From a virus, in the IMG/VR virus record IMGVR_UViG_3300008267_000364, positions 5,179 through 69,178 of that record: DNA of 64,000 nt. One strand, 5' to 3'. Positions 1,506 through 63,600 of this stretch are shown here, piece by piece. Each line of letters begins with the position of its first letter. The first letter of the stretch is position 1. A model generated the notes under the pieces. It worked only from the letters and a program-made list of their open reading frames with translations. It was not told the DNA's origin and did no database searches. A program made the translations under genes and the position numbers.

Positions 1506-2708
1506 TTAGTTTATTAATTGACAATCACAGATATTACATTCATGCATTATTTTATGCATCATATCATCTGCTTCTTCTTCTTTTAAACAATTTTTTGCTA
1601 TTGTTGTAGTAATTTCACAAACACCGTTATTTGGTGGTGCAGCATTTGTATATTGTAATACTAAAGGTACACTATTTTCAGTATAATGTAAATCAAATCT
1701 AAGAACTTCATCTGAACATGTAAGATATAAACTATAAATAGTACAAAAACTATTACAAAATTCATCAATAAGAATACCTAATTCAGTTAATTTTTTTACT
1801 AATAATGATTGAGTATTTAAAATACCATCTCCATATATTGTGTAACTATTAGTTAAACTATTTAAATAAATTACTAAATAGTCAGAAGTTGTAGGAATAT
1901 AAGATACAAATTTACTTCTTCGTAAATTATCATTTATATAATAACAATTATTAGGTTGTATAGTAGTAACTACAGTTTCATCAAAACCATATGAAGTCAA
2001 TGCTTCAATTCTATCTATTAAATTATAATTTTCAAGAGTAGGATTTTTACCTTCAGAATAAATTATATAAGCATAACCATCTGTATCTATTTTAAGTATT
2101 ACTTGTTGTAAATTATTAGGAATAACAACTGATGTAGTTCCAGGTAAATCAAATATAATATTAAAATATAAAGTTTCATGTGGAATACAATTAGAATTTA
2201 ATATAAATACAATGTATGTATTACCTAATGTTAAATCTGGTACTGAAGCTGAAATACTATTATCCCAATACATTTTACCTTTTATAAAAACTTGATTAGT
2301 AATTGTATTTTTATAAGTTTTTAATTGAGAAGTAACTAATCCAAAAACACCTAAAGTCCCTTCAGTAACACTATATTCTATTAAACTTCCACCACTAGTA
2401 CCATCTTGAGCTATAATTTCCCAAGAGTCACCATCCCAAATATAACTTTTACCTAAAGTAGTATTATAATATCCCCAATTTAAACTAGGAGATGTTGGTG
2501 CAGAAGATAAACTACCTTGCCATACTATACTAACACCATTAGTTCCATTAGTTCCAGGTATTCCTTGTGGACCTGTAGCACCAGTTGGACCAGTAGCACC
2601 TACGTTACCTTGTAGACCTTGAATACCCTGAATACCTTGTATTCCTTGAGGACCTTGAGGACCTGGTAAACCACTAGGTATTGTTAATGAATCACAATCT
2701 ATACACAT
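1506..2708 (-). CDS. Collagen-repeat fibre protein
   Basis: N-terminal MCxxC followed by a Gly-X-Y run ([13 protein letters not shown]...); Cys-rich C-terminus. Confidence 0.75.
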
Positions 2709-2719
2709 GTTATTAATTT

Positions 2720-3343
2720 TTAAAATTGTCTTATAGGGCGAATATACAAACCTTGGTCAGAATATTTATTTTCATAAAAAACAGTTCCATGAAAAAAGTT
2801 ATAATAAAATGCAGCATATGAACTAGCTTCTGAACTACTCCAATAATAAATTATTGAAGTTGGTGTATCTACTCCTCCAAGTAATTGTGCACCAGATATT
2901 GTACTTAAAGTTTTATTTACATTAAATCTATTATTCCATAATAAACTTAATTCATCTACTGCTGGTAAATACCAATCAGTAAAACCATCTTTAGAATAAG
3001 CTAAACATGCATTAGCTGCACCAAATGTATTACCAACTTGTGAAACTATTGCATTACTATTAGATAAGCCATTCCAACTACTTTTTGCTGTTGGACCTAT
3101 TTCAATTTGAGGAGCATCACTCCAATAATTTACTACAGAATTTACATGTTCAACAGATACTATTAAACCATGTTCTACATTTTGAGAATCTTTCCATAAG
3201 TGATACACTATACCTCCTCCAAAATGTTCACCAATATAATGAACAAATCCACCTTGAGGTCCTACAGGACCTTGTGGACCAGTTGCTCCAGTAGCTCCTG
3301 TTGCACCAATAGGAATAGTTAAAGTTTTACATTTATTACACAT
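2720..3343 (-). CDS. Collagen repeat plus DUF1566/Lcl C-type-lectin-like domain, putative receptor-binding protein
   Basis: Short GXY repeat; [16 protein letters not shown] and terminal IRPIRQF motifs typical of DUF1566. Confidence 0.75.
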
Positions 3344-30695: not shown

Positions 30696-31097
30696 ATGAA
30701 AACTAAAAATTTTGAAGTAGGAGATTTAGTAAAATTAAAGATAAGTGATAATAATTGGAATGAAGATATGGATTATTTTCATGAAATGATTGTTGAAATT
30801 AAACAAATTTTAGAAATGCGTAATGGTAAAACAAGAATTAGATTTGATGAAGATAATGGTTGGGAATTTGTTTATGAAGATGGTCATTTTGAATTATATG
30901 AAAAAGCTAAACCTGTTGTTAATAAACATTCTAGTATAGATGATGAAATATCTTATCAAGAATCATTATTAAATAATATTATATTTCATGAATCTAAAAA
31001 AATAAATGAACTTAAATCTGATATAGAAGGTATTAAATCTAAAAGAAAAAAAGTAGATTATAATAGTATAACAATTAAATTAAATTATAAACCCTAA
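30696..31097 (+). CDS. Hypothetical protein, SH3/KOW-like N-terminus
   Basis: FEVGDLVKL start. Confidence 0.55.
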   Translation: MKTKNFEVGDLVKLKISDNNWNEDMDYFHEMIVEIKQILEMRNGKTRIRFDEDNGWEFVYEDGHFELYEKAKPVVNKHSSIDDEISYQESLLNNIIFHESKKINELKSDIEGIKSKRKKVDYNSITIKLNYKP

Positions 31098-31109
31098 AAA
31101 CAAAAACAA

Positions 31110-31400
31110 ATGGCAAAAGTGGAAAAACCAGCATCAATGAAGTATGTAGATTTAATTAATCGTGATTCTTCAGAAACTAGACAAGATGAATTAGTATTAC
31201 ATGCAAAGACAGCAGAGCTTCAAGTAGAAGCAGATTTAATTCAAGCAGCAAGACTTGAAAATTTAGCTAAAGTAACATTGAATAATGTAATTTCAATGAT
31301 TCCTTTTAGTCCAAAAAACTATATTAATGCAAAGCGTGATTTGCAAGATGCACAAGACTTAATTGCTGAGTTAAAAGCAATAAAACAAGAATTATTTTAA
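31110..31400 (+). CDS. Helical hypothetical protein upstream of the Ubl gene
   Basis: 96-aa ORF with A-rich leader. Confidence 0.65.
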   Translation: MAKVEKPASMKYVDLINRDSSETRQDELVLHAKTAELQVEADLIQAARLENLAKVTLNNVISMIPFSPKNYINAKRDLQDAQDLIAELKAIKQELF

Positions 31401-31432
31401 TTATTAACCTTAAACTTTAAAAAACAAAAAAC

Positions 31433-31666
31433 ATGAGAACTATTACAGTATTAAATCCACAAACACAAACTCCAGTAACTATTAACTCTGATGTTACAAC
31501 TTGGGCTGAATTACAAGAAGTTTTAATTAACAATAACATTAATCCAACAGGTATGAAGGGTATTGTTAGAGAAACTCGTAATTCATTAGAGTCAGGATCT
31601 GCTATTTTACCAGAAACTAACTTTACATTATTTTTATCAGCTTCTAAAATGGCTGCAGGTCACTAA
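31433..31666 (+). CDS. Ubiquitin-like (beta-grasp) protein
   Basis: 77 aa; strand-strand-helix (TTWAELQEVL)-strand...strand (FTLFL) pattern; tail KMAAG-H; adjacent to E2, JAB and E1 genes. Confidence 0.7.
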   Translation: MRTITVLNPQTQTPVTINSDVTTWAELQEVLINNNINPTGMKGIVRETRNSLESGSAILPETNFTLFLSASKMAAGH

Positions 31667-31692
31667 TATTAATTTAATTAAAAAACTATAAA

Positions 31693-31941
31693 ATGTCAAG
31701 TATAGATACAAACTCTATAATTAATTCTTTAAGACAAGAATTAAGTTTAAAATTAGAAGAAATGATTGAAGAAATTCAAGAGATTCTTGAAGAAAAAATT
31801 CAAGATGCTGTTGAAAATATTCAAGATGAAATAAATAATGGTGATCATGATTCAATAGCTCCTATTAGAGGAAGAGAGCTTACTCAAGCTGAAATACTTT
31901 TAGCTGAACAACGTAAAATAGAAAGAGAACTAGGTTTGTAA
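31693..31941 (+). CDS. Acidic coiled-coil protein
   Basis: 82 aa, Glu/Ile-rich heptads. Confidence 0.6.
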   Translation: MSSIDTNSIINSLRQELSLKLEEMIEEIQEILEEKIQDAVENIQDEINNGDHDSIAPIRGRELTQAEILLAEQRKIERELGL

Positions 31942-31948
31942 CTAACAA

Positions 31949-31974
31949 AGCCCTTCTGAAAAGAGGGGCTTTTT
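31949..31974 (+). terminator. Intrinsic terminator/attenuator between the Ubl unit and the enzyme genes
   Basis: AGCCCTTCT-GAAA-AGAGGGGCT followed by TTTT. Confidence 0.8.
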
Positions 31975-31987
31975 AAATTAAATTAAA

Positions 31988-33241
31988 ATGGAAACAATAG
32001 AAGAAGTTAGCCCATTATTAGACATATCTACGTTAAAAGAAGGTGATTATTTTTATCATAATGATTATGATCAATCATTTTTTAAATTCATAAGAATACA
32101 TGATGAAAAATACATATTATCTGAAAAAATTGATAATACTAGTTTTGATTTAATATCATCAAATTATCTTTTAGAATTACCAAATCTTGCAAAAAAAATT
32201 CAAATAATTAAAGATGAATATTTTATAAACAATGTTGAAAATTTTCGTATTTCAATAGGTAATATGTATAGAGTATTATCTGATGCAGAAGATGATTATT
32301 TTGCTTATAAAAAAAGATTAATAAATTTTGAAGATAGAAAACAAAGATCAAAGTTTATAGAAGTATTGAAACATCATTTTGATGAAGACCATTATGAAAT
32401 AAATAAAGTTGGATCTGAATTACATTTTATTTTAAAGTATGATGATATTACTATTGAAAATTCTGAAGACAGATCTCATTTTATTAAATCATTATTTGTT
32501 AAGTTAAAATTTAATACTAACAGTAATACTTTTAGTGATAATATGGAAGGTTATAGAGGTGAAATGTCTATTAAAGAGTTATGTTCTTCTTATTTTCATA
32601 GTCATTTGAGTACTCATACATCTAGTTTTCAATCATTTTGTTTAGGTGCTTCAGAATTAGGTATTCTTTTATCTGATTTACACAATAAACAATTTAATCA
32701 AGATTCTTTTGATTTACTTTTATATACTATTTCAGAATATGTTAAATGGGAATCTTTAGCTGGTGGACCTTACATTAAAATAAAAGATTTAAGTTATTCT
32801 ACTAATAGAACTACTTTAAATTCAATAAATGTTGATGATACTAATAATACTATAAAAGCTTTCATAGATTCAAAATCAGATTTTAATACTAAATTTAATT
32901 TTAGTAGTAATTCTATTGAAGTTGTTAAAGATGAACAGTTTGTAAAAAACATTACTAAACTTATTCCCGATAGATTAAAAGTAATTATGGTTAATGATAC
33001 TACATCACCTATTTGTGATATGGAATCTACTAAAAGAAGTGCAGTAAGTAAATTAGGTACATTAACTAAATTTTCATTTAAAGGTAAAATGTATCCATGT
33101 TTATATGAAGAACCTGAGTTTCAACAACTTAATAATCAAGATAACATAGAAGCACATCCTTTATTAGTAGATAAAGTTAAAAAACATTTAGAACAAAAAA
33201 TTAATAGTCACTTTTTAAAACAATTAAATGAAAAAGTATAA
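31988..33241 (+). CDS. Prokaryotic E2-like (UBC-fold) protein
   Basis: YFHSHL-x10-CLG, resembling E2 HPN/HPH...C; followed by WESLAGGPY; operon context. Confidence 0.65.
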   Translation: METIEEVSPLLDISTLKEGDYFYHNDYDQSFFKFIRIHDEKYILSEKIDNTSFDLISSNYLLELPNLAKKIQIIKDEYFINNVENFRISIGNMYRVLSDAEDDYFAYKKRLINFEDRKQRSKFIEVLKHHFDEDHYEINKVGSELHFILKYDDITIENSEDRSHFIKSLFVKLKFNTNSNTFSDNMEGYRGEMSIKELCSSYFHSHLSTHTSSFQSFCLGASELGILLSDLHNKQFNQDSFDLLLYTISEYVKWESLAGGPYIKIKDLSYSTNRTTLNSINVDDTNNTIKAFIDSKSDFNTKFNFSSNSIEVVKDEQFVKNITKLIPDRLKVIMVNDTTSPICDMESTKRSAVSKLGTLTKFSFKGKMYPCLYEEPEFQQLNNQDNIEAHPLLVDKVKKHLEQKINSHFLKQLNEKV

Positions 33242-34340
33242 AGAAATAAATTTAAAAGCTAAATCTAAATTAATCATTTCTAAAGAACTTCAATCTCAAA
33301 TTATGTTCTTACATAATAAGGTTAAAGATATTGAGTGGTCAGGTATATTATTTCACAGTGTAGTATCTGGAAATATCAATGAACCTGAAACTTTAGTATT
33401 GAAAGCTGAAAAAGTATATTTACAAGATATTGGTGTAAGTACTTATACAGAGTTTGAAACTAATGAAAAGATATTAGATTTTTATGATGCTTATCCTCAA
33501 GCAATGTCTTGGAAAATGAGCTTAATTCACACTCATCATTCAATGCAAGCTTTCTTTAGTGGTACAGATACTCAAGAATTACATGATAATGCTGGTAAAT
33601 ATAATTATTATTTATCATTAATAGTTAATCATAAATCTGAGTTTTGTGCTAAAATTGCAATAGCTGCTGAATATAACATTGAAAAAGCAAATTATACCTT
33701 TAAAGGTTTTGAAGGTATAGAAACTATTGAAACTTCAGGTACTAAATCTGATGTATTGATGTTAATAGATTGTGATATTGAGTTTGAACAAGATGAGTTT
33801 GATGTACAAAAGTATAATGAAATAAAAGAATCTAAGAAAGTAGTTAAACCTACTTATGATTTCTCAAATTCATTTGGTGAAGGTTTTGGTAGATATGGTT
33901 ATCCTAAAACAACCTATTCTTCTAATCCTGCATATAACTATAATTACAATAGTCAAACTAATTTATTTGAAGAACCTAAAATAACTACAACTTATGAATT
34001 ATCTGATTTTGAAGTAAGAAAGTTTTTAGTAAAATGGTTAACATTAGATGTTACTAATGATACAATTTTATCTGATGTATTATCTTTAGTTAATAAGTAT
34101 AAAAATACTAAAATAACTAACTTTATTGAAGAAATAGATATGAATTTAGAATACTTTATTGAAGAAGTATTTCCAAACTTACCTGCTGGTAAAGAAACTG
34201 ATAAGTTATTACTTGCTGCAGTAGATGTGTTATCTAAGTATTCTTCATTTAAAGTTACAAATAGTATTATTGATTTATTATCAATGTATATATCAGACTA
34301 TTATAAAACTACTAAAAAATCTAAAACTAGTAAAGTATGA
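33228..34340 (+). CDS. JAB/MPN+ metallo-isopeptidase
   Basis: EWSG...HTHHSMQAFFSGTD matches JAMM motif E-xn-HxH-x7-S-x2-D. Confidence 0.88.
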   Translation: MKKYKEINLKAKSKLIISKELQSQIMFLHNKVKDIEWSGILFHSVVSGNINEPETLVLKAEKVYLQDIGVSTYTEFETNEKILDFYDAYPQAMSWKMSLIHTHHSMQAFFSGTDTQELHDNAGKYNYYLSLIVNHKSEFCAKIAIAAEYNIEKANYTFKGFEGIETIETSGTKSDVLMLIDCDIEFEQDEFDVQKYNEIKESKKVVKPTYDFSNSFGEGFGRYGYPKTTYSSNPAYNYNYNSQTNLFEEPKITTTYELSDFEVRKFLVKWLTLDVTNDTILSDVLSLVNKYKNTKITNFIEEIDMNLEYFIEEVFPNLPAGKETDKLLLAAVDVLSKYSSFKVTNSIIDLLSMYISDYYKTTKKSKTSKV

Positions 34341-35023
34341 GTCAAATTAATGTCAAAACTTCAAGATTTAATGAAGCTCCTTGGTTTAAAGAAGGACAAG
34401 ATGTTTTAATAGGTGGTTCAGGTGGTATAGGTTCTTGGTTAGCATTATTCTTAGCTAGACAAAGTTGTTATATTTATATTTTTGATGATGATAACTTTGA
34501 AGAAGTTAATATTGCAGGTCAATTCTGTAAAGTATCTGACATTGGTAAATCTAAAACATCAGCTACTAGAGAAAATATTATTGATTTTACAGGTAATAGA
34601 AATGTAGACGAATTTGGTTTATATAGTGAAGACTCATTAGCTAACTCAATAACTTTTTCTGGTTTTGATAATATGAAATCAAGAAAAATTATGTTTGATA
34701 ATTGGGTAAAATATATAAATGATGATAATGAAGATAATTTTTCAGTATTTATTGATGGTAGACTTAATGCTGAAGAAGCAGAAATCTATGTTGTAACTCC
34801 AGATAAAATTGAAGATTATCGTAAAACATTATTTGATGATTCTGAAGCTAGTCCATTAAATTGTAGTTATAAATCTACTAGTCATTGTTCAGCAATGATA
34901 GCAGCATTAATGACTTCTGCATTTAATAATGCTTTTACCAATTACAAATTAAAGCTTAATTATCGAGAAGTTCCTTTTAGTATTAAGTATCAATTACCAT
35001 TATTAAATTTTGAAATAAAATGA
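34337..35023 (+). CDS. ThiF/E1-like adenylating enzyme
   Basis: GSGGIGS, DDDNFEEVNIAGQ, GKSK, FDNMKSR, IDGR; candidate catalytic Cys in PLNCSYK. Confidence 0.9.
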   Translation: MSQINVKTSRFNEAPWFKEGQDVLIGGSGGIGSWLALFLARQSCYIYIFDDDNFEEVNIAGQFCKVSDIGKSKTSATRENIIDFTGNRNVDEFGLYSEDSLANSITFSGFDNMKSRKIMFDNWVKYINDDNEDNFSVFIDGRLNAEEAEIYVVTPDKIEDYRKTLFDDSEASPLNCSYKSTSHCSAMIAALMTSAFNNAFTNYKLKLNYREVPFSIKYQLPLLNFEIK

Positions 35024-35988
35024 TTACACCAATATTTAAAATTATACCAAATGGGCAAATTTCTAATAATTCTTTAAGTTTTAATACATCATTAGATTAT
35101 ATTCCTACATTACTTATTCCTAAATTTAAAATAGTTTCAAGTAATCCTATGCTTAGTAGTGGTTCTTTTAATATTAAAAATTGGGATGTTAAAAAAAGAA
35201 ATGAAGTTTTTGCTAAATATACTACTCTAAGATATAATCATCAAACTCAAAGATTAGGAAAATTATTTCATTCTCATTTATGTGTAAAAGTTATTAATAA
35301 TAATTCTATTGTTGAAAGTTTAAAAACTACTAAAGAAGATATTCTTAATATTATAGATAATACTATTTATGGTATTAGTGATACTGTAAATGTTATAGAT
35401 TATTTTGGTAGTAGACCATCAACTGAATTATTAGGTTATTTTAAAAATCATTATAATTATGATCAACTTTCAAATCTTACTTATGGTTCAGGACCAAATA
35501 AAACAACTTGTTTAATAAGCTCTGAATTTATAGCAGATAATTATAATAATGTTAATTGTGATATAAGTTATGTTTTAATGATAAAGAAAGAATATATTGT
35601 TGAATATATTTTATCATCATTATTAGGTAAACCTATAAACAAAAGTAATTTTCAATGGTGGGTTGATAGTAGAAATACTACAAGATTAAATGAATTTAAA
35701 AAGCGATCTTATAATCAGTTTGTAAAACATATAAAAGAAACTGATATTGAAATTATTGCTAAAGAAAATTTAAATAATCTTATCTTAAATTTTGAAAGTC
35801 CTAAGATTTCATCAATATCTGAAATCAGAGATTTTAATCAAAAATTAAACTTACATGTGAAAAACTTTATGTATAATTCAGAAGAAAACCTACCTGAATT
35901 AGACTTAAAAATTAGTAAAGAAGTTATAAAAACAGTACCTTTAAAAGGTATGAAAATTAAAAAAGTAGAACCACAATTAGTAGATTAA
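35020..35988 (+). CDS. Hypothetical protein translationally coupled to the E1 gene
   Basis: 322 aa, ATGA overlap. Confidence 0.65.
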   Translation: MITPIFKIIPNGQISNNSLSFNTSLDYIPTLLIPKFKIVSSNPMLSSGSFNIKNWDVKKRNEVFAKYTTLRYNHQTQRLGKLFHSHLCVKVINNNSIVESLKTTKEDILNIIDNTIYGISDTVNVIDYFGSRPSTELLGYFKNHYNYDQLSNLTYGSGPNKTTCLISSEFIADNYNNVNCDISYVLMIKKEYIVEYILSSLLGKPINKSNFQWWVDSRNTTRLNEFKKRSYNQFVKHIKETDIEIIAKENLNNLILNFESPKISSISEIRDFNQKLNLHVKNFMYNSEENLPELDLKISKEVIKTVPLKGMKIKKVEPQLVD

Positions 35989-36007
35989 CAATTAAAAACC
36001 AGTAAAC

Positions 36008-36244
36008 ATGGAAAATTTAACATCAGAAACAACAATTTCAAGTAGTAATGAAACTACAACAACTTCTAAAGAAGTACGTCAAATTTCTAAATCTGAATTA
36101 ACTAGATTAGTTAATGAAGGTAAGAAGAAGGATGAAATATCCTCTTATTATGGATTGAATAACGCTCAAACTACAAAGTTATTACAATCTGCTGGATTAA
36201 AAATTCGTAAATTTCACAAACCAACTTTTACATTAGTAGACTAA
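36008..36244 (+). CDS. Small HTH-like protein
   Basis: GKKKDEISSYYGLNNAQTTKLL. Confidence 0.55.
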   Translation: MENLTSETTISSSNETTTTSKEVRQISKSELTRLVNEGKKKDEISSYYGLNNAQTTKLLQSAGLKIRKFHKPTFTLVD

Positions 36245-36245
36245 T

Positions 36246-37322
36246 ATGAATAGAGAAGATATTCAAAAGATAGCTTTAAATAAAGCATTAGAACATAAAA
36301 GATGTAGTTTAGCTTTAAGCGGAGGTACTGGTAAAACATTAATAGGATTGCAACACATGGCTAAACACAGTAGTGATTCTAAATTTTTAGTAGTAGCTCC
36401 AAAGAAATCTATATTTCAATCTTGGAAAGATGATGCTGTAAAGTTTAACTTTGAGTATCTTCTTAAACAAATTACATTCTGTACATACTTATCATTACCT
36501 AAACAAAAACCAGACTTTCATACTATTTATTTAGATGAGTGTCATTCATTAAAACTTAATCATAATGAGGTTTTAAGTAAGTTTAATGGTAGTATATTAG
36601 GATTGACAGGAACACCTCCTAAACATCCTCATTCTGAGAAATCGTTTATGATTGACAAGTACTGTCCTGTAATTTATTCTTATAATACTGATGAAGCCGT
36701 TGATCACAAAATTTTAAATGATTATAGAATTGTAGTTCATTATGTGAATTTAGATTTAAATAAAAACATTAAAGTTACAAAACCAAATGCTACTTGGATG
36801 ACTAGTGAAATTCAATTATACAATTATTGGACAGCTAGAGTAGATTCATCTGTAGGTAAAATGAAACAGATAGCTGCTATTCAAAGAATGAAAGCTATGC
36901 AATTATTTGTATCTAAAGAAAACAAAGCTAGAGAATTATTAAATAGCATTGGTGAGTATAATAAATGTTTATGTTTTGCTAGTACACAAGAACAAACTGC
37001 AAAGATATGTCCTGCTACATATCATTCTAACAATAAGTTTTCTGAAAAGAACTTAGAAGCATTTAAATCTGGTACATTAAAAAAGTTATGTGCTGTAGAA
37101 CAACTTAGTGAAGGTATTAACATTCCAAATCTTAAATATGGTATAATTATGCACTCTTACGGCAATGAGAGAAAAGCTAGTCAGAAAATATTTAGATTTT
37201 TAAGGTTAAATCCTGATGAGCAATCTACTGTACATATTCTTTGTTTTAAGAATACTATTGATGAACAATGGGTTAAATCAGCATTAGAAGATTTTAATCA
37301 AGATAAAATAACGTATATATGA
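36246..37322 (+). CDS. Superfamily 2 helicase
   Basis: GGTGKT, DECH, LTGT, EGINIP, QKIFRFLR. Confidence 0.88.
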   Translation: MNREDIQKIALNKALEHKRCSLALSGGTGKTLIGLQHMAKHSSDSKFLVVAPKKSIFQSWKDDAVKFNFEYLLKQITFCTYLSLPKQKPDFHTIYLDECHSLKLNHNEVLSKFNGSILGLTGTPPKHPHSEKSFMIDKYCPVIYSYNTDEAVDHKILNDYRIVVHYVNLDLNKNIKVTKPNATWMTSEIQLYNYWTARVDSSVGKMKQIAAIQRMKAMQLFVSKENKARELLNSIGEYNKCLCFASTQEQTAKICPATYHSNNKFSEKNLEAFKSGTLKKLCAVEQLSEGINIPNLKYGIIMHSYGNERKASQKIFRFLRLNPDEQSTVHILCFKNTIDEQWVKSALEDFNQDKITYI

Positions 37323-51679: not shown

Positions 51680-54600
51680 TTATAAATCTTTTTGCATTTG
51701 TGAAAATAAATCATTTCCTGAAGGTAATACAGGTACTTCTGGTAAATTTTCAAAAGCTTCAAATGCAGAACCATTAGCTTCAAGTGATTCAAGTGCTAAA
51801 GCCTGAGCTTCAAGTTTTTGTATTAAATCTTCAGAAGGTTCTACAAATTGTTCAGTAGATGGTTGAACAGATTGTTGAACAGATTTAGTTTTTTTAACAG
51901 ACATTATATCATCAGGATCTGCTTTAGGACTAACCTCTTTTATCTTACTAAATTCTTTAACAGCTTTTTCATAAGTACCTGGGAAATAAACACTTACACC
52001 TTTGTAACCTGTAAAGTTTAATGGTTCATAAATAGCTTGTTCACCAATAGCAAAACCTAATTCAGTTTTATGATCTTGTAAAGTTCCATTACCATAAGAA
52101 GGTATTCTACTTAATACTTTTTTAAGTTCATAAACTTTAGTTTCTTTACCAACTTTAAATCTTCTAAATTGAGGAAATTTAAATTGAGCAACTGTTTTAG
52201 TTTCACCAGATTTTTTATCAATATAAGTAATGTTTTTAGCATCTTCACCAGTAACTTCTTCAGTTTTAAATATATTAGATAATACTTTAATATTAGTAGC
52301 AATATCCTCACTTTCTAATCTTTCTTGTAAAACTTTAATTTCAGAAGATAATTCTTTTTCTAACTCAGGACTTCTTTCACTTGCAATTCTAGCTTGTGCA
52401 TTACTTAATTCTTTTTGTTTAATAAATAATTCTAATCTAGTTTTAGAAGATACTTTAAAATCAATAGTACCATCTTCAGCAATATTAACTACCTTACCAT
52501 CATTTTCAACGCTATTATATTTTACAGCCGCAAAACTAGTATTTTTATCAGTAACATAAAGTTTTCTAAAGTTATAAGCTAACTGTTCAAACTTATCCAT
52601 GTTCATGCTTTCTTTATTAACTAAACCTTCAGTAATATCATCTAATAATTTAGAATAGTTACCAAACATTTCTACAGGTAAGAATTTAGAAATACTGTTA
52701 TTTTTAAACAACATATTATCTTTAACCATTAAGTAACTTAACATATTACTAACAAAAGCTCTAGGTGTTAATCCAGTAGTTTCATCAATAACATCATTGT
52801 TATAATATAATGATTTAACAGCATCTATTAATTGAGAAATAGTTTCATTACTTTCCTTAACAAAAGACTTACTAACAATGTAATCAGTAGCATTCTTAGA
52901 TGTATTTTGTACTTCAGAATCTTGTTCTTCTTTAGAAGATCCATCATTAGCTATTGCGGTAGTTAAGTATCTTACAATGTAGTTATCTTTAGTAGTAGGA
53001 TTAATTTTTAATTTATCTAACTGTCTAGCTAAAGTATCTTTTTCAGGACCATTTAATTCTTGGAATACTAATCCTAAATCAATACTATTTATACGTTGTT
53101 CAATAAGTTTTCTTTTTGGAGAATTTAAAGGTTCTTTAGTTTTTAAGTTTTCTAAATTTTCTAAATAACTTCTTACTGAAATATAACCTAAAAACTCTTT
53201 ACTTAATTTAGAATAATTATCACCAATATTAGTAAATGATGTATTTAAACTATGTAATATTTTATTTAAAGATTCTTTAAATACATCAGTTTGTTCAATA
53301 AATATTTTCTTACCTACTTGATTTTCAACTACTAAGGCTCTTTTAATATTATTAAAAGTATTAGCATCATCTTTCAATAATTCTTCAATATCAATGTGAG
53401 CTTTAACTTTATCTGGAGAACTAGTTTCTTTCTTAGGAGTATTGAATAATGCATTTAATTCAAAAGTATCAATAGCTTTATGTAAACCATTATGTAAATC
53501 ATTAAATGAAATATCTAATCCTTGATTTAATTTTAAGAAACTATTTACATTAGACATTATATCATTTTGACCACTAACTTTTACAAATTGAGATAAAGCT
53601 TGTAATTGAACTTCTAATGAAGTTGAAGTATTACCTACACCTAATTCATCAGCTTTAAAGTCAATACCTTTTAATAATGCATTTATTTCATCAGTAGATA
53701 TACGTTTTAATTCAGGATTCTTTTCTAAGTCACTTACCTCACTCATAGTATCTTTAGTAATCCTTTGTTTTAAAGGTTTATCTAAATTCTTAATATAAGC
53801 AATAGCAGCAATAATTGTAGATTGTTTAGTAAAGTTATTTTCTACATCATCTTTTACAGCATATCCAGTTGTTTTTAATAACTCACCATACTTTTGAATA
53901 ATAGGTATATTAATAAACTTAACAGCATTTTCAAAACTCATACCTTGCATAATAAGTTCTGTAACACCACCTAACAATTCAAATTTAATATTTAATTTAG
54001 CAGCAATAGGATCCTTAGCATTATCCGTAAATACGTTCAATAGAATATTCAAGTTATCAGCTATCCTTTGATCTTCAGAATTTTTTGCTTTATATGTACC
54101 TCCAACTTCTTCAGCAATTTCAAATTTAAAAGCATCTTTATTAAATGTTACAACTTTTTCTCCAACTTTAGACATTAAGAATGCAAACTGTTGAATCTTA
54201 TTAGCTGCAATACCAATACCATTTTTACCTTCAGAGTTCTTAGTATTAGCATCAAACTTACCATTAACATCATGAGCAGATTTAAATTTCTTAGATGTAG
54301 TATTGTTACTAACTTCTTTGATAAATCCTTCATCAGTTAATTTATCAACTAAGTCTTTAAGAGCATCTGTAGATGTAGTATTGTTAGCAATCTCAACCAT
54401 TCCTTTGTTAGTTAACATAGGTATCATTGAATCTAATGCTTCATTATTTAATTCAGCACCAGTTTTAATTTTTGATTTAATAAATTCTTCTACATTAGAA
54501 GGTAATCCTAAAGATTTAGATACATCTTCATAGATTTCATTTCTTAATTCATTTAAGAATTTATTTTTAAAATCTTTTTCTAAATTTTTATCTTTTAAAA

Positions 54601-57600
54601 CTTGTTGATAAGCAGTACTTTTATTTAACTCATCATTGTAATTTCTAATAAAATCTTTATTATAATTTAAATTATAAAACTTATAAGCTTCAAATTTATC
54701 TTCATTTGTTTTTTCAGTACCAAATTTAATAGGAACTGTTGGAGCATCTTTTTTATACCAAAAATATGCCATTTGAATAAACTCCGAGTCAATATCAAAA
54801 TCCGCTCCTGATAAGTGTACAATTTCAGATGGGAATAATCCTATACCTTGATAGTAATCAGGTAATAAACTTACTACTTTTAATGACATAGCAGACTGTT
54901 TATCCCCTGTAGGAATACGATAACCTAACATTTTTAATACTTCAGTCATTTGAGGAGTAATAGTATCTCCTATTTTTAAACCATGTCTAGTTAAAATAGC
55001 TTGAGATAACATACATTCTGAATACTTATTACCATCTTCATCTTCTAAGTTATATCCTAACTCTCTAGTAGAGTATTCTTTACCAGAATACAATTCTGGA
55101 TTTTTAACTAATTGATGATGAGAAATAATATTACCTGTAGAATCTGTAACTACAGGTTTTAATCCAGCACTTGATGCTAATGAAACTTTATCTCCATTAA
55201 CTTTTTGACTAAATCCACCTTTACTAAAATGAGATAATACAACTTGTTCAGCTTTAACTAACATTTGAACCATGTTGTAGTTATAACCACCTTCAAAGTA
55301 TTGCATAGTTTGTTCATCAGCTCCACTAGAAGCTAATGCTCTTTTAACTATATCATCTAATCCACTTTTATCAATACTTCCTTTATAAGTACTATCACTA
55401 GTTAAATTATTACCTTTAATATCTTTAATTACAGCAATAGCCTTCTTAAATGCTTCAGATCTACTTCCAGCAATAGCATCATTATATTTCTTTCTAAGAG
55501 CACCTACAGTAGTTTTTTCACCATTAATAACTAATTCTTCATTATCATTTTGTTCACTAGCAATAAGTGTTAAAATCTGAGAACCAAATACAATTTCTTT
55601 TTTACCAGTAGGAGTTTCTACTTGTAAACGCTTATTAGCATTAGACACTGCAAATCTAGACTTAGATAAATCTAAATCACCAGATAAACTGTTTTCAGGA
55701 ATTAATGTAGCTCCTTTAGATGCAGATTCAGTAGCAACGTGATCTACTTCATTTCTATCCATATTGTTAGCTAATTCATGCCAGTATTCCATACCTTTAA
55801 TAGGTTTGTATAAGTCTGCTAATTTTCTAACAGTATCTCTATATTCTTGAGATTCAAAATCATCTGCAAAAATTAATTCTGTTAATGTATCAGTTAAACT
55901 AGTAAAGTAGTCTACATCTTTATCTTCAATATAAGATATACTACTTCTTATTAATCCTAACTCAGACATCTTTAATAACTGTCCATTTAAACCATCAAAA
56001 ACAATAGTCTTTTTAGAGTTTAATGAAGCCATTATTCCAGCTAAATGTTCTTGACTAGAATTACCAATATTTACATTTCTAATAACTCTACCTTCTTCAT
56101 CTCTTTTAGTAAACTGAATAATGTTTTTGTAAATACTTTTAGTTTTTTCATCTAATCTACCTAATCTTAAAGTACCCATCATAATATGATATTGAGAACT
56201 ATAAGACATCGCATCATTAGATGTGTATTTACTTACTTTGTATTCAGTACCATCTATTACTGTATAATCATATAATTTTTTACCTTGATCATCTTTTTTA
56301 ACTTGTACATCTTTAGGATCAACTCTTTGAATTTTATCTCCAACAGGTTTAACAGTAGTGTATAAATCAATATCTTTAATAATTGCAGAGTTATGAGCAC
56401 CTTTTCCATAATCAGGACCAGAAGCCATTGCAGATTTATTTCTTTTAGAAATATCAACTTTATCTTTTCTCTGTATAGAATAATCTCCATCTAATAACTC
56501 ATTCATAGACAAAGCCATCATGTAGTCATTAATGTAAAATTGAGCTAAGTTGTTATCAGTTTTTAAATCTTTATCTAAGAAAAATCTAAGATTGTATTTA
56601 TCTACTTCAGCTTTAAATTCTTGTAATCCTTTATCTAAATAAGTATTGATACCTATTTTTACAGATTCTTTTAAAGATGGACTTAACTCACTATATGGAA
56701 CACCACTTAATGCTGAATTAACTAAACTATCATATTGTTGTTTAGCAAACTCTTTATTAGTAGACATTGTTTCTTGTAAGTATTGAAACTCTGTAAAATC
56801 AAAAGCTCTACCTTTAACAGAATCATTATATCCTTTATACTTACGACCTTCATTATTATCAAATAATTTCTTTTCTCTAAGTATTCTATTGTACTCTTTT
56901 TCTACTTGTTTATCAAAAAATGAATCTTTTACATCTCTACCTTCTTCAGTAAAAATATCTACTTTAGGAAGTTCTACAGCATAAGCAGTATTAGAAGCTT
57001 CATTTTGTCTAAAGATATATCTACCAGTATCAGATTTACCATTATTATTAAATAAACTTAAAGCACTTAATAAGTAACTTCTTCCATCAAATCCACCAAA
57101 AGTAATACCTTGTTTAGTCTCACCTTTATCACTTACAGTAGTATCTCTAAGACCACTTAAGATATTTAACTTAAGATTTTTAAGAAGATCTCTATGATTT
57201 TTAACTAAATAGTTTTCTTTAACAAATTCTAAATTCCTTCTTTCTACATCAGTAGTAGTTACAGGATTTTTACTAAACATGTTTTTCCAGAAAGCATCAT
57301 TCTTGTAAACTGACAATCTACTAATTACATAAGAGTTATTAATAATCTCATATACTTTTTGTCCTTCAGCATTAGTAAATGAGAAGTTACCAATAGTTTC
57401 ATCAAATAAAGCATTGTTCTCTGCCATTGATTTTAAACTACTATCAGCTTCTTTACCTCTGTAAACATTATAAGGATCTTTTTCAAAGATGTCAGCTAAA
57501 CTGAATCCTTCACCAATAGCCTTATTACTAAATATTGTAAAGTCAATTGGAACATAATTATCGTAAGAAGCTAATATTCCTAATTGATCTTCAGTAAAGA

Positions 57601-60600
57601 ATTCTTTAGTTTGAGCAACTTTCTCTAATGAAGCTTTTTGTTTTAATAATGAATATCTAATGTAAGCCTTAGTTAAAGGAATACCTATTGCATCAAATTG
57701 AGATTTAATATTATTAACATTGTCATTAAGTTTATTTTTATCTAACTTTTTAACATTAATAACATTTCCTGATAAGTTGAAAATATTACTACAGTTTTTA
57801 GCTAAACTTTTTCCAGTAGCTTTACCATAAGTAAGTCTATTTTGTAAGTTAGTAGCCCATAAGTTTAATGATACATTACCAGGACTATTGCTATTAGCAT
57901 TAACCCAAGTTAACTTACCTGTTTTTTGATCTAATAATACATCTAATTGAGCTATTCTAGATTTCTTAAAGTTAGTTAAGAAAGCTCTAAATGTGTTATA
58001 AGCATTAGCATTAGTAGGTACAGTAATTGTTTTAGTTTCAACATCAAATGTAACTCCTAAATCTTTTAATATTTGTTCATAGAATGCTTTAATATTAGGA
58101 TTACTTTCTGCAGCATAGTGAATTTTAGAAATCATTTTATCTTCACTAGTATCAGCTAATATTCTAGTTAAACCATTATATAAAGTAACTTCATCAACAG
58201 CAACTTCTCTTTCTTCTCCTGTAAGAATATCAGTCTCAGTAACAGTAGTAAATGCTATGTAACTTTTAATAGCTTGAGATAAAGAATCATGACCTCCTGA
58301 TAACCATGCATCTTGAGAACCTAATTTTTCTTTAACTTCTAAAGCTTCCATTCCACCAGCTTCATTCTCTTCTATCTCATCAACTTTATTTTTAAAACTA
58401 AATACATTTAATTTATCAAGAATTGATGAAACTAAAACTTCTTTAGCTTTAATATCACTAGAGTTTACACTAGTTGGATCATATAAATAAAGTTCTTCTT
58501 TAATTTTATTTTGTAAATTTGAACCAAGAACTTTATCAGTTTCATATTGAGCACTAGCATAAGCTTTACCTTTAGTATTTAAATCTTCTACTCGTTTATT
58601 AATAAAATATTCTATTAATTCTTCAGTAGGTTTAACTTCTTTAGTAACTTTACCATCTACTTCAACACTATTATATAACTCTGGATTATCAGAATACTTA
58701 CCTTTTTTAGCATTGTAAACTTGAATAGCAAAAGAGTTTATTATTTTTCTAGATTCTGAAGCAGTAAAGAAACCATTAGCTATAGCATTTTTCTTATTAG
58801 GTAATAATTTAAATACTGTATCATAATTGTTAGAATAAACATTGTTTACTGGATTAGAGTTAACAAAACTACCTTTTAAGATATTACTAAATAATATACT
58901 TATAGGTTCATTTCTGTCAGTATTAAATATTTCTTTAAAGAAATTAACAACTTTAAAGAATAATCTTTTTAATATATTACTTGAAGTTTTAGTATTTTTA
59001 TCTTTAGCATAATCAGAAAACTTATCAGCTAAGTATTCTTCTAATACAATAGAAACTAATTCTTCATTAGTTTTAGAAGCATAACCAGAAACAGTATCTT
59101 TAAGTTTCTCAATTTCTTCTTTAATATTCTTACCAGATTTTACAAATTCTTCAGCAGCTTTAGTTAAATAAAAATCAATCTGTTCATTATTTAACATTGT
59201 TCTAAATACAGCATGGAATGCTTCATGGTATGCTGTACCAGGTTTACCTTTAAAAGTATTTAAGTAAATTACTTTATTCTTAAATGCTCCATAAGGAATA
59301 CCTTTTATTTTTAAGTTAGAAGCAATAATTTTAATATCTTCAATAGATATAAATCTAGGAAGTATTTTTCTAATAGATTCAATTTCTTCTTTAGTAATAC
59401 CTGTAGATTCTTCTAAACTAGAAGAGAATACAATATCTTCATCATTAGAAGTTAAAGTATCTATTTCATTATTAAGATAATCTTTTATTTTATCTAATTT
59501 ATCAAATTCATTAGTAATGTCTTTAACTAATTCTGCATATTTAGTTAATACTAAATCAGGATTACTTGTAGCATCTTTTAAATCTTTATTTAATTCAGAT
59601 AATATTTTTTCATTATTAGTTACCTCAGCAGATGGAGTTTCTTCAACAGGTTTAGATTCTAAAGCAGCTAGTTCATCATCATATTTTTGTAAAATATTTT
59701 TTTCACTTTTTGACATTCTTGATTCTCGTTCATCCCAAAAAGTTTTTAAAACATGAACTACTTTAGAACCTTGATTTTTTGTAGTTCTACTTATATTTTG
59801 AATTATTTGATATGCTGTATATTTATCTATATTTTTTTTAGCAAATAGTTTTATTAATAATTGTAAAGAATTTACATTAACATCTTGTTCATCAATCCAT
59901 TTTTCTAATTCAACTTGAGTATCTGTAGTAGTTTGAGTATCAGTAGGTGCAACTTCTACAATTAGGTTATTACTTTCAATTCTGCTAACAATATTCTTTT
60001 CAGGATATTTCTTTTTAAGTTCTTCAATATCAGAATTTATTTTTTGTCTTTGTTCAGGTGTAGCTCTTGATATATTAAATGTAACATGTTTACCAGATTT
60101 ATTTATATCTGCTTCCATGATTGCTAAACCTTGATTCCCAATATTACTTAAATTACTAAATCCTAAATCTGTTGCTTTAGCATCTGTAGAGACAGGAGTT
60201 GATGGAGCAGGTTTAGTTTCTGCAACAACACTTTCAGGTTCAACTCCTTCAGCAATACCTATTTGAATACCGTGTTTTAAAAATCCTTCTTTAGAAATAG
60301 AAGTTCCAATATTAGATAAATTTACTTTGTTATCTTCATCAATAAATTTATTATACTTTATATCTCTTTCAGTAAAAGCACCAGTATCCCCATTAATGTT
60401 ACTAGCATTTAATACTTTAACAAGGTTTTCTACAGTAAAATCTTTTACATTAATTTCAGCACCTAATTTTTTTGTAGGATCTGCTTTTGAAACAATAGCT
60501 ACAGATTTAAACTTAGTTCCTTTACCTTGTTTAACTTGTAACTTCAAATACAATTGTTTCTTAGCAGAATTATAATTTAAAGTTAAAGCTCTTTGTTCTC

Positions 60601-63600
60601 CTTGTATAGGTTTTAATGCAAAGAATATTTCACTGTTAAAATCTTTAACAATGTTTTTAATCTCTTCATTAATTTTAACTTTTCTTTCTTTATCAGCAGT
60701 AGCTAATTCTTCAATTAAAGCTTGAATCTTAGTAGTAGTTTCAGTAAATACTTGTTGAGCATTTTGATGAACAGCATTTCTAGCTTTAACTATTTGTTCA
60801 ACACCATCAGGTAAAGTTACCCTTAAATGTAATCCTTTTTTAATATCTTCAATAGCTTCTGAATTACTAACACCTTTAGATTCTACAAGACCATCAGCAT
60901 CTTCTTCTAGTACGAACTCTTCAGCAATATTTGTTTCATTATCACCATAGAATAATTTTAAAGTAGAACCTTGTGGTAAATCTAATTTATCTGCAGTAAC
61001 ACCAATTTCATTATTAATTGTAGTATTTAAATAACGAGTAAGGTTAAAATCTATTACACCTCTTTGAACTAAAGCATTAATAGAATCAATGTCTTTAGGA
61101 TTACCTTCAGCATCATAAAATAAATTAATTACTTTTTGGAAAGAATCTTTATTTGTATCAATACCTTCAGCAAAATGTTGAATTGTAGATATTGGATAAA
61201 GTTGACCATCAGGACCTATTAAATTCAACATTACATTATTACCTTGTTGAGTAAAATATACTGCTTCTTTTAAAGATACATTATTACCAATAATATAATT
61301 TAACAACTGTTGAATTTTTTCAAAAGGTGTCAAGTTGTAATCTTTTCTAAAATCACCAACAACTTTACCATTTTTTTGAATAGCACTATCACTATTCTCA
61401 GGTTTAGTCATTAATACATTTTGATGAGGTGTTACAGAAGATTCAGTTTCTTGAGATTCAGTTTCTTGAACAACTTCTCTTTTTACTTCACCACCAATAG
61501 TAGAAGCTTCACCAAAGGCTTCTTGTTCAAACATTTCACTTTGTATTTCTTCAGGAGTCTTTTCAGTAACAACTTCTTTTTGAGTTTGTACAGGAGTAGA
61601 TTTAGTAGACCATTCTGCAAAAATATTACCAGCTTGTTCTTCAGAAATTTGACCTTGATTAATAGCATCTTGTAATCTTTGAGTCAATTCTTCTTGTGTA
61701 GTATTTTGATCAAACCATTGAGACTTAACTTCTTGAGTAGGAGTAACTGGTGTAACTACTTGAGTTTTAGCAGGTTGAACAGGTTCAATAGGTTGAACAG
61801 GTTCAACAACTTCAGATACAGGAGCTTGTTTAACAGCTTCTTCTTCTTTAGCATCAATCTGTTCTTTTTGATTAGCAATATCTGCATATTTACTCCATAA
61901 AGATTCAGATTTTTGTAAGAACTCATTTTGTAATTGAGGATTTTTTAATGCATTATAAGCTAATACAAAATCTCTTTCTCTATTAGTTAATTTAGATAAA
62001 TCATCTAATTTTTTAATTATTTCATCTTTAGTTAACTCATTAACTTTTTGATCTGATTTTAAAAATTTTTTAAAATTTTCTTGTTCTTGATTAGATAAAT
62101 TAGCATAAGTAGTTCCAAATGTTTCTGGAGTAGAAGTTATAAATGTACTTAATACTTCTTCACTAGGTACAGCTCTTGTAATTAACTCTCTTAATAAAGG
62201 TTGACCAATAGAATTACTAACTTCAACACCTAAAGACTTTCTTCTTTCTTTAGTATTTTCCATACCTTGAGCAGAATACATTAATAATTCTTTTACTTCA
62301 GGATTAGCATTAGGAAATAATTTAGTTACTGAATTATAAGTATCTTCAATAGCTGCAATCTTTTCTAATCTTGATTCAACAAAATCTCTTACAGCATTTG
62401 TAGAAGTTAATTCATCTATTTTAGATTTATTTTTAACAGTAACATCAATACCATAGTTAGTTTTTAGTTCTTCAACAGTTAAATCTTTAAAAGAATCTAA
62501 CTCTTTTTTAACATCATCTAATTTACCATTTTGCAATCTGTTATAAACATATGAAAATATCATATCTTCATTAGCATTATGATAATTAAAATCATCATTA
62601 TTAATTAATGCTTCATCCTTATCTTCAGTTAAATTTGCAGATCTTACATAATTATCTACAAACTTTTTTCTAACAACTTCAGCATTATATTTATTTAATT
62701 CTTCAACTCCTTTAGCTACAATAGCATCTTCAGGATTAGTAATATATTCATCCTTAAAGCCTTTAGGTCCTCTACCAACTAATACCATACCTGGACTAGC
62801 AATACCTGCTGACAATGCTCCAATAATACCTGAATGCCACCCTTCTTGAGTTCCATAAGCTTCAGCTAATCCATGAGTCATTGAATCTGCAAAATCAGAA
62901 GCATAAGGATTATAATATTTTTTAGTATAATAATCTTCTACTGTTTTACCAATAGCAAACTGTAATTGTTCTTGAGTTCCTTCAGAAAGTAATGGAGTAC
63001 CAAACTTACTTGCTCTGTAACCTAAGTTAGCATATTTACCTTTTTCAGCAATCTTATAAGCACCAGTAGCTTCATCTAATATAGAACCTTCTTTAACAAT
63101 TTTAGCAAAGTCATTTGTTTTATTTCCAAATAAAGCTTTACCAAATGTTAACCAGTTATCAGCCATAATTACAGGTAGGTTCATTGCAAATGCTGCATCA
63201 CCTGCCTGTCTAGCCATCATCTTAGCATATTCTAATTCTCCTTCTGATAAGTTTAATTCATTACCAAAATAATCATGCGTTAATTTATATAAAACATTTT
63301 TTTCAGCTTCTCTAGCTTCAGCACCAGATTCACCTTGAGCACCAGCTCCTGAAATGATACCTCTTTTTAAACCATCTTTAATATCTTTCTTAAAAGCTTG
63401 ATCAGCAACATATTTTAATTTATCAGATGCTGCACCTATTCCTACATTTTTAGTTTCAGCTAATATTGCAGCAGCTTCTTCAACAGTTCCTGCAGCTCCC
63501 ATAGCTTTACCTAATAAAGATAAACCTTTACTCCAAGCTCCACCTGCTAAACCAGCACCAATAGTTGTACCAGCACCACCTAAAATATCTCTTGATATAG

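Follow-up and report, generated by a model that had tools for sequence, protein, structure and literature searches.

Operons that combine a ubiquitin-like protein (Ubl), an E1-like activating enzyme, an E2 and a JAB peptidase were described on mobile elements by Iyer et al. (2006; PMC1779556). The PRTRC cassette is operon type 6d, and NCBIfam has the corresponding models TIGR03735-03738 (PRTRC_A, a JAB; PRTRC_B, a Prok-E2_D protein; PRTRC_C; and PRTRC_ThiF). The Bub preprint (PMC11601596) describes pre-proteins, among them the BubAB fusion, that the JABs of bacterial Ubl operons cut, as well as minimal E1s with a catalytic residue on the crossover loop and highly diverged bacterial E2s. Bacterial operons with Ubl, E1, E2 and JAB (Bil, type II CBASS and Bub) were recently shown to be antiphage, and here we analyse a locus that would place the same chemistry on the phage side. 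It lies in a stretch of 64,000 nucleotides (nt), referred to as the window, which covers positions 5,179-69,178 of the 69-kb linear virus record IMGVR_UViG_3300008267_000364. The module consists of genes for a small Ubl candidate of 77 amino acids (aa), a 417-aa protein, a JAB/JAMM metallopeptidase and a minimal E1. We conclude, with a probability of roughly 55%, that it is a phage-encoded system for the activation and processing of a Ubl, conserved in crAss-like phages and in Flavobacterium-phage and freshwater relatives.

The argument starts from conservation. We surveyed IMG/VR by alignment to the E1 and found that 302 of 346 candidate stretches encode a relative of it; the best 80 of the 302 were analysed together with the phages FpV4 and DAC17, giving 82 loci. 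All 82 contained the E1 and 81 the JAB. Members of the 417-aa family were present in 79, and an iterated profile hidden Markov model (HMM) detected the Ubl domain in 78. This survey of synteny, which a preliminary description of the locus had proposed as a check, gave the same order of Ubl, 417-aa protein, JAB and E1 in 78 of the 82 loci; the remaining four are cut off upstream and all 78 with enough upstream DNA conform. For a collection of annotated phages we detected the E1 in 74 records: 29 Flavobacterium psychrophilum phages (FpV4 group), 29 Bacteroides crAss-like phages (including crAss001 and DAC15/17), 12 entries named 'uncultured phage cr...' and four others. The suspected link to Crassvirales was borne out by those 29 crAss-like phages, crAss001 among them. 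Existing annotations of the E1 in these records range over 'thiamine biosynthesis protein', 'ThiF family', 'E1 enzyme family' and 'hypothetical', and the tblastn matches were to Steigviridae-type phages and the Fipvunavirus group. The motifs pointed out in the preliminary description (HSH-x11-CLG in the 417-aa protein, the JAMM motif, GxGGxG and DxD in the E1, and KMAAG-H at the end of the Ubl candidate) are all present. They are not due to chance, because the residues are invariant or nearly so across the relatives.

Cellular genomes showed a different distribution. Among 185,579 prokaryotic species, with one genome each, we encountered only 15 loci, all on contigs of metagenome-assembled genomes (MAGs), most of them phage-sized and all with the same module; the family is therefore essentially phage-borne. 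The gene order of the phage loci recurs in MAG loci. Two full four-gene modules lie inside very long MAG contigs (L086, 373,651 bp, Puia sp.; L092, 639,747 bp, Bacilli bacterium), each of which could be an integrated or chimeric crAss-like element and not a free phage contig. Two further contigs were binned with archaeal MAGs (L084, Promethearchaeia archaeon; L087, Nitrososphaerota archaeon), which is probably a binning artefact.

The 228-aa protein is a ThiF/E1-superfamily adenylase, and the identity first proposed for it holds. Its single Pfam match is to ThiF over residues 22-194 (7e-11; 42.2 bits against a cut-off of 28.1 bits), and the family profile matched 47 distinct sequences in the PDB, including MccB (1.8e-9), TcdA, PaaA, UBA5 (3e-7), Uba1, the NEDD8 and SUMO E1s, ThiF and Cap2. 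The window protein carries G27-S-G-G-I-G32 and D50-D-D52. Thirteen residues (R10, G27, G29, G30, D50, D52, N58, K73, D111, R116, D140, R142 and C176) are invariant in 76 of 76 relatives, as they are in 33 aligned sequences. We provisionally take R10, K73 and D111 to be the N-terminal Arg, the Lys and the Mg-binding Asp of MoeB/ThiF; C176, ~65 residues past this Asp, would presumably sit at the position of the crossover-loop Cys. The E1s of gut crAss-like phages (e.g. crAss001 gp76 with 383 aa, locus L117 4060-5211) have N-terminal extensions of ~70-200 residues that are absent from the 228-aa form of the window, and some of these extensions may be over-called starts.

The 370-aa protein is a JAB/JAMM peptidase, the identity originally given, which holds on the strength of the complete motif and of family-wide Pfam matches. 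The motif reads E36, H101-T-H103, x7, S111, x2, D114; among 74 relatives, E36 and H101 are each found in 73, and H103, S111 and D114 in all. Prok-JAB was matched by 31 of 33 family members with a best E-value of 2.4e-6, whereas the window protein alone scores under the Pfam cut-off (16.6 vs 25 bits). The catalytic domain spans approximately residues 25-140 and is followed by a variable C-terminal region. A search of the PDB with the JAB profile yielded chance-level matches only.

The small protein provides the most informative pattern. Of 73 distinct relatives, 72 retain Gly76 of the 77-aa sequence and 70 have Ser at the position before it, where the window has Ala (K-M-A-A-G76). The domain ends in K-x-K/R-S-G, with KSG in 32 and RSG in 31 of the 73 sequences. 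In most relatives it makes up the first ~80 residues of a longer protein (146-290 aa), so that a fusion is the usual form, a fact that had been missed. The lengths of the tails behind the Gly are bimodal: we observed 1, 1, 1 and 2 residues and then none until at least 60, with tails of at least 60 residues in 69 of the 73 distinct sequences and a span of 60-210 residues for the fused tails. Several lineages thus make a free Ubl capped by one or two residues, and all others make a fusion; in the MAG loci L084 and L085 the Ubl stops exactly one residue past K-S-G. This is the pattern of a modifier precursor in which the Gly would be the functional C-terminus, and the fused forms imply a predicted cleavage after K-x-K/R-S-G. 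The short and the long forms together agree with the earlier proposal that trimming would expose the C-terminal Gly. The ESM Atlas model of the exact 77-aa sequence has a pTM of 0.66 and a pLDDT of 0.73, and its named structural neighbours are all beta-grasp proteins (TM-scores: RBD 0.65, DWNN 0.67, YukD 0.68, SAMP2/ThiS 0.63), a lead towards a predicted beta-grasp fold. An alignment-averaged Chou-Fasman sketch is compatible with a beta-beta-alpha...beta arrangement and is too crude and weak to be used.

The tail itself shows recurrent features. Behind the K-S-G of crAss001 (L117 801-1478) and of other gut crAss-like Ubl fusions there is a conserved stretch A-x-S-R-x-E-A-Y...G-K-N-F-T-x-C-x-T-x-D-L-I, which matched SAP in one of 34 members (3e-4) and HeH in one of 34 (0.028), and the tails terminate in an acidic motif resembling S-x-x-E-I-D-x-M-F. 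This composition suggests that the cleaved-off tail may be a DNA- or protein-docking factor. The 82-aa open reading frame (ORF) behind the Ubl gene of the window is tentatively a detached C-terminal tail of such a fusion. With blastp it resembles the C-terminal tail of the Ubl fusion of locus L020 (32% identity over 69 aa, E 8e-6, uncorrected, composition-biased and from a database of 34 sequences); hhalign found no significant similarity between the ORF and a Ubl-fusion tail, and an HMM recovered the ORF in locus L003 alone. The gut crAss-like contig L079 is an independent case that resembles this arrangement: the Ubl domain (91 aa, ending in R-S-G plus two residues; 1958-2233) and the tail (190 aa; 2687-3259) are separate ORFs.

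The 417-aa protein is an unproven candidate for an E2-like Ubl carrier, with about even odds for that role. We detected its family in 3386 representatives of 50%-identity clusters at E<=1e-3 and in 2287 at E<=1e-30; the PHROG match of the window protein, PHROG 15310, is labelled unknown function. Ten residues are invariant in 99 of 99 aligned sequences (N158, Y202, S205, H206, C218, G220, E255, S256, G259 and P261), and H204 is kept in 98. The conserved core at residues ~135-265 reads Y-x-H-S-H ... C-[LT]-G-x-G-P-I ... E-S-x-x-G-x-P-Y. The window has H204-S205-H206, x11 and then C218-L-G, where x11 is particular to this phage, as the spacing from HSH to the Cys ranges from 11 to 26 with a mode of 15. 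From the Cys to the Glu it is fixed at 35 in 84 of the 99 sequences. Three observations favour the E2-like role: the invariant Cys with an invariant His and Ser nearby, the gene position and the Atlas fold match. The gene stands directly upstream of JAB and E1, which is the slot of the E2-like PRTRC_B in the cassette C-F-B-A-ThiF of Ralstonia phage Dina. The nearest named structural clusters of the Atlas core (residues 130-280) are Prok-E2_D, with TM-scores of 0.50 and 0.52, and the feature-based Atlas neighbour is a cluster with 11% Prok-E2_D members (score 0.87). A Chou-Fasman sketch, again too crude and weak to be used, is compatible with strands before the HSH...C segment. No short stand-alone homologues were found in the length range searched.

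From the precursor diversity, the enzyme identities and the synteny, all of which we observed, we infer every chemical step of the following pathway. The comparison of relatives shows that the Ubl is made as a precursor, with a tail of 60-210 residues in most relatives and a single His in the window. The JAMM peptidase would then cut after K-x-K/R-S-G (K-M-A-A-G76 in the window) and expose the carboxylate of the Gly, as the bimodal tails and the precedent of Bub and Bil suggest; it may additionally reverse conjugates. Judging by the conserved residues of the ATP/Mg site, the E1 would adenylate Gly76 and may form a thioester on Cys176. In the weakest step the 417-aa protein would take over the Ubl at Cys218 and act like an E2, as carrier or ligase; position, conservation and a lead-level fold match speak for this step. 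Purely by inference, the Ubl might finally be conjugated to phage or host proteins in the replication phase. The fuller version of this pathway holds that crAss-like phages and their aquatic relatives run their own Ubl conjugation with a new phage-specific family of E2 type, that the modifier is first joined, as in eukaryotes, to an unrelated replication-module factor with SAP-like features and an acidic tail, from which the JAMM protease frees it, and that the tagging of replication or host proteins is a core step of infection. We put it forward tentatively, at somewhat less than an even chance.

A number of results weigh against Ubl activation and conjugation. We know of no E3, target or conjugate. 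The 77-aa protein matched no entry of Pfam, PHROG, NCBIfam, PADLOC or the PDB by sequence and no Ubl family with Pfam, a PDB profile or hhalign; the support for the beta-grasp fold of the earlier Ubl claim is structural and at the level of a lead. The E1 has Gly in 76 of 76 relatives (G61 in the window, 34517-34519) where E1 enzymes have the Arg of N-L-x-R-Q (MccB: N-L-T-R-Q); the alternatives are compensation by another Arg and a different ATP chemistry. Most of the contrary results concern the 417-aa protein, whose Cys is conserved in 99 of 99 sequences, as claimed, while the E2 identity assigned to it did not emerge from any sequence test. Its Atlas model is poor (pLDDT 0.49), so that TM-scores of ~0.5 are a lead only. 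Pfam gave a relevant match for 0 of 32 family members, the profile search of the PDB returned a single spurious match to a tag or linker (E 0.11) and PF14460 had no match in the window's own genome. Comparisons of the family with PRTRC_B/Prok-E2_D and with the E2 domain of Cap2 by hhalign reached probabilities of 0.1-0.2%. The targets were 11 PRTRC_B sequences from Bacteroidota, then 15 sequences with phage members added, and four Cap2 E2 domains; for enlarging the profile there were 120 PRTRC_B sequences among the matches listed, all at least 78% identical. The top local alignments put F-C-L-G on V-C-M-G, which we did not count as evidence. The His-to-Cys spacing of the family is also variable (11-26), unlike the fixed HPN-x8-C of classical E2s.

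Other explanations account for parts of the same data. The module could be a sulfur-carrier pathway: the Ubl, trimmed by the JAB and adenylated by the E1, would acquire a C-terminal thiocarboxylate and deliver sulfur for a small molecule or a base modification, with the 417-aa Cys/His protein as the sulfur-transfer or insertion enzyme. Trios of Ubl, JAB and E1 occur in pathways for cysteine and for siderophores, with QbsE and CysO as examples. Iyer et al. (2006; PMC1779556) report trios of this kind for these pathways. The module here is located among nucleotide-metabolism genes. The best NCBIfam matches of the E1 are ThiF-type sulfur-carrier adenylyltransferases (1.4e-9), the feature-based Atlas match of the Ubl is a cluster with 14% ThiS members, and SAMP2/ThiS is one of its structural neighbours. 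However, the best ThiF/MoeB equivalog model (PRK08644) scores 37.9 bits against a cut-off of 159, the E1 has only 228 aa and is without a rhodanese domain, and no cysteine desulfurase, PP-loop ATPase, thiamine or molybdopterin gene occurs among the ORFs scanned. The lack of thiamine and molybdopterin genes among the neighbours scanned agrees with the preliminary description; this lack and equivalog scores far under the cut-off set the module apart from the ThiS/MoaD pathways. Sulfur carriers are not known for fusions to long SAP-like or acidic tails, and the colinear PRTRC-type cassettes have an E2-like protein at the slot of the 417-aa gene. We consider a sulfur carrier unlikely.

Counter-defence is a second alternative: the module would tag no targets of its own and would disturb Ubl-based host immunity (type II CBASS Cap2/Cap3, Bil, Bub), for example by a JAB that strips host conjugates or by a Ubl and E1 that compete as decoys. 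The antiphage Bil and CBASS systems form the background to this idea. Antiphage activity of bacterial Ubl systems is covered in PMC11601596, and a 2026 preprint (10.64898/2026.03.05.709809) brings up the possibility with respect to a UBA5-like protein family of gut phages. The E1 has weak matches to 19 PADLOC CBASS 'E1-E2' models (best 4.4e-6) and to 6A-MBL cap2_3 (1.4e-5), but no member of the module matches a defence model beyond this generic E1 fold. A strictly conserved set of four genes that includes a Ubl precursor of its own and lies in the replication module of very distant phages fits a core function better, while accessory anti-defence genes usually vary between relatives; this makes counter-defence a distinctly improbable account. 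The fusions could also mean that the beta-grasp domain is just a cleavable N-terminal chaperone or pro-domain of the tail protein, which the JAB matures, and that the freed Ubl is never conjugated; eukaryotic fusions of ubiquitin to ribosomal proteins and lambda TAPI/TAPK would be parallels. Exactly such a role is proposed for phage TAPI and JAB by Iyer et al. (PMC1779556). It would suit the 69 of 73 distinct sequences with tails of at least 60 residues and the conserved SAP/HeH-like stretch and acidic C-terminal motif of these tails. The adjoining E1, invariant in 82 of 82 loci, is left unexplained by it, and so are the tail-less lineages (L026, L084 and the window with its split tail), and we regard maturation alone as very improbable. 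None of the three explains the whole gene set as well as Ubl processing and activation.

The features of the locus are collected in Table 1. All five ORFs of the preliminary description are present on the plus strand at the coordinates given there, which left only the 82-aa ORF overlooked. The overlaps it reported between the last four genes are likewise present, with 14 nt between the 417-aa and JAB genes, 4 nt between JAB and E1 and 4 nt between E1 and the 322-aa gene.

Table 1. Features of the module region in the window and the corresponding genes of crAss001.
Feature	Position in window	Strand	Basis and remarks
Ubl candidate, 77 aa	31433-31666	+	ORF list; C-terminus ...SKMAAGH (G76, then one His)
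Acidic, coiled-coil-like ORF, 82 aa	31693-31941	+	ORF list; possible detached Ubl tail
Terminator-like hairpin with T-run	31951-31967	+	Consensus scan; between the Ubl/82-aa genes and the enzyme genes
417-aa protein, candidate E2-like Ubl carrier	31988-33241	+	ORF list; phage-only family, invariant Cys218
JAB/JAMM metallopeptidase, 370 aa	33228-34340	+	ORF list; complete JAMM motif
Minimal E1-like ThiF-fold adenylating enzyme, 228 aa	34337-35023	+	ORF list; Pfam ThiF
322-aa ORFan, translationally coupled to E1	35020-35988	+	ORF list; occupies the variable fifth-gene slot
crAss001 gp79, Ubl fusion			...K-K-I-K-S-G, then A-M-S-R...
crAss001 gp78, 417-aa family			HMM E 3.5e-106
crAss001 gp77, JAB			Annotated 'metalloprotease domain'
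crAss001 gp76, E1			Annotated 'thiamine biosynthesis protein, ThiF'
crAss001 gp75, fifth-gene family			

The surroundings are those of a replication module, as had been stated. The upstream neighbour is a DNA polymerase (PHROG 1252 at 3e-117), for which we obtained no Pfam match and from the PDB only an E-value of 0.61 to E. coli Pol II. Downstream follow an SF2 helicase, a DnaB-like helicase, a Sak4-like protein and an SSB. The module region is AT-rich with a GC content of ~24-25%. The hairpin in front of the enzyme genes could set a higher ratio of Ubl to enzyme transcripts; it is weak evidence, because a consensus scan detected three terminator-like sites in the region where 1.3 were expected. 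A scan of the region for sigma-70 promoters was uninformative with 80 sites against 82 expected.

Near-identical DNA, at least partial, was found in freshwater, lake and aquaculture metagenomes (at least 20 runs from 14 studies). The block is covered without gaps by independent metagenome contigs; one X3 contig of 7670 nt reaches from 31323 to 36298 and differs from the window at 63 positions, with 0 gaps. In the RNA-library run X20, contigs matched 31555-31927 and parts of the 322-aa gene, and none matched 32062-35070. This library may contain DNA and its uncovered parts prove nothing, so it gives no reading on expression. One of its contigs stops at 31927, just before the hairpin, which proves nothing either. 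Elsewhere in the window a giant ORF of more than 4081 aa (51680-64000, minus strand) runs past the window end; the huge virion proteins that crAss-like phages encode are typically of this kind.

The gene behind the E1 deserves separate mention. The 322-aa protein had been described as a coupled unknown; its coupling is real. It does not belong to the conserved system, because we found only one other cluster, at 95% identity. Pfam, PHROG, NCBIfam and PADLOC returned no match for it. Most relatives (L001-L082) have a fast-evolving fifth gene at this place (e.g. L008 6663-7751, L047 6711-7481 and the fifth gene of crAss001), whose subfamilies form a loose superfamily linked by hhalign at 77-94% with no Pfam match. 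The 322-aa protein did not join this superfamily with hhalign (best 2.2% to family 51 and 1.5% to the main family f17). The fifth-gene family is a candidate for a specificity factor or a target.

Searches of the full-text literature (with subscription papers and the supplementary gene tables of crAss-like surveys, which may annotate the genes, outside their range) yielded no description of the module. The nearest mention is one sentence in the preprint 10.64898/2026.03.05.709809 on a family of gut-phage proteins with a UBA5-like fold, which may be a phage homologue of the ubiquitination-like proteins of bacteria. The module is thus possibly an undescribed phage-borne form of the prokaryotic Ubl/E1/JAB systems with a family of E2 type that may be new. 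A very large group of phages has it as a conserved and syntenic component of the replication module, judging by the 302 IMG/VR contigs with the E1 and the 3386 clusters of the 417-aa family. In crAss001 it comprises gp79-gp76, between the primase and the UDG, with HMM E-values from 8e-63 to 5e-123. As crAss001 carries the module under the labels 'hypothetical', 'metalloprotease domain' and 'thiamine biosynthesis protein', it offers a cultivable model for a direct test. If conjugation takes place, the most abundant phages of the human gut would possess a viral system of post-translational tagging, with a new E2-like family and a parallel in prokaryotic viruses to the ubiquitin fusion precursors.

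Among the known systems the PRTRC cassette is colinear with the module: a small protein, (F), the E2-like B, the JAB A and ThiF, in genes coupled stop to start, on mobile elements (conjugative ones in the case of PRTRC) and phages. PRTRC_ThiF is related to the module E1 (hhalign 97.6-98.2%) and PRTRC_A weakly to the module JAB (38%, E 3.4e-4). In contrast, the curated cut-offs of the PRTRC models lie far above the scores we obtained (ThiF 17.5 vs 144.75 bits, PRTRC_A 12.5 vs 101.8 bits), and the module proteins have no match to the NCBIfam HMMs PRTRC_B, PRTRC_C or PRTRC_E. The 417-aa protein has no significant hhalign similarity to PRTRC_B or PRTRC_F. A Pfam scan of nine ORFs (30696-36244) and of the scanned neighbours revealed no ParB family, and genes for PRTRC_E and PRTRC_F were not found. 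The module is consequently not PRTRC, since all PRTRC HMM scores are far under the cut-off and no ParB gene was found. The module Ubl is also usually fused to a long tail, unlike in PRTRC, and the 417-aa family has conserved His residues upstream of its Cys, whereas the E2s of type 6d lack that His according to PMC1779556. Complete PRTRC cassettes (E, C, F, B, A, ThiF) are located at the genome end of proteobacterial phages of 33-39 kb, namely Ralstonia phage Dina (L109 1739-6091) and Burkholderia phage BgVeeders33 (L110). Ubl-type operons are therefore also present in a second group of phages, unrelated to the one described here.

Type I Bub (PMC11601596) shares with the module an N-terminal Ubl in a pre-protein, a proposed cleavage by JAB, a minimal E1 of the homodimer type and a very diverged E2. 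It uses Tyr/Ser oxyesters and the serine protease BubE, whereas the candidate catalytic residues of the module are the invariant C176 and C218. JAB and E1 are separate proteins in the module and the fusion partner of its Ubl is not the E2. BilABCD likewise unites the activities of Ubl, E2, JAB and E1 in one operon, and PMC11601596 states that its JAB trims and deconjugates. Bil is a host-encoded defence island, while the module is phage-encoded and part of the replication module. The architecture of the Bil E1 differs from the single 228-aa domain with one ThiF match that we observed; the module is not Bil because its E1 is single-domain. The likeness to PRTRC and Bil that had been suggested earlier consequently does not extend to membership in either.

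Phages lambda and T1 provide a precedent in TAPI and TAPK (JAB plus NlpC/P60), where, following PMC1779556, a phage Ubl with a conserved C-terminal Gly is fused to a C-terminal domain and partnered by a JAB. Unlike the module, this pair is without an E1 or E2-like gene and belongs to the tail module and not to the replication module. Eukaryotic ubiquitin is made as fusions to ribosomal proteins or as polyubiquitin with one extra C-terminal residue, and a peptidase exposes the Gly. Like these precursors, the module Ubl either precedes an unrelated protein in the same chain or carries one residue as a cap; it differs from ubiquitin in its single Gly (S-G or A-G and not G-G) with no detectable sequence similarity. 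With its ThiF-fold E1, its JAMM-type JAB and a small protein with a conserved C-terminal Gly, the module resembles the class-6 prokaryotic Ubl operons in its working, and the layout closest to it is that of PRTRC.

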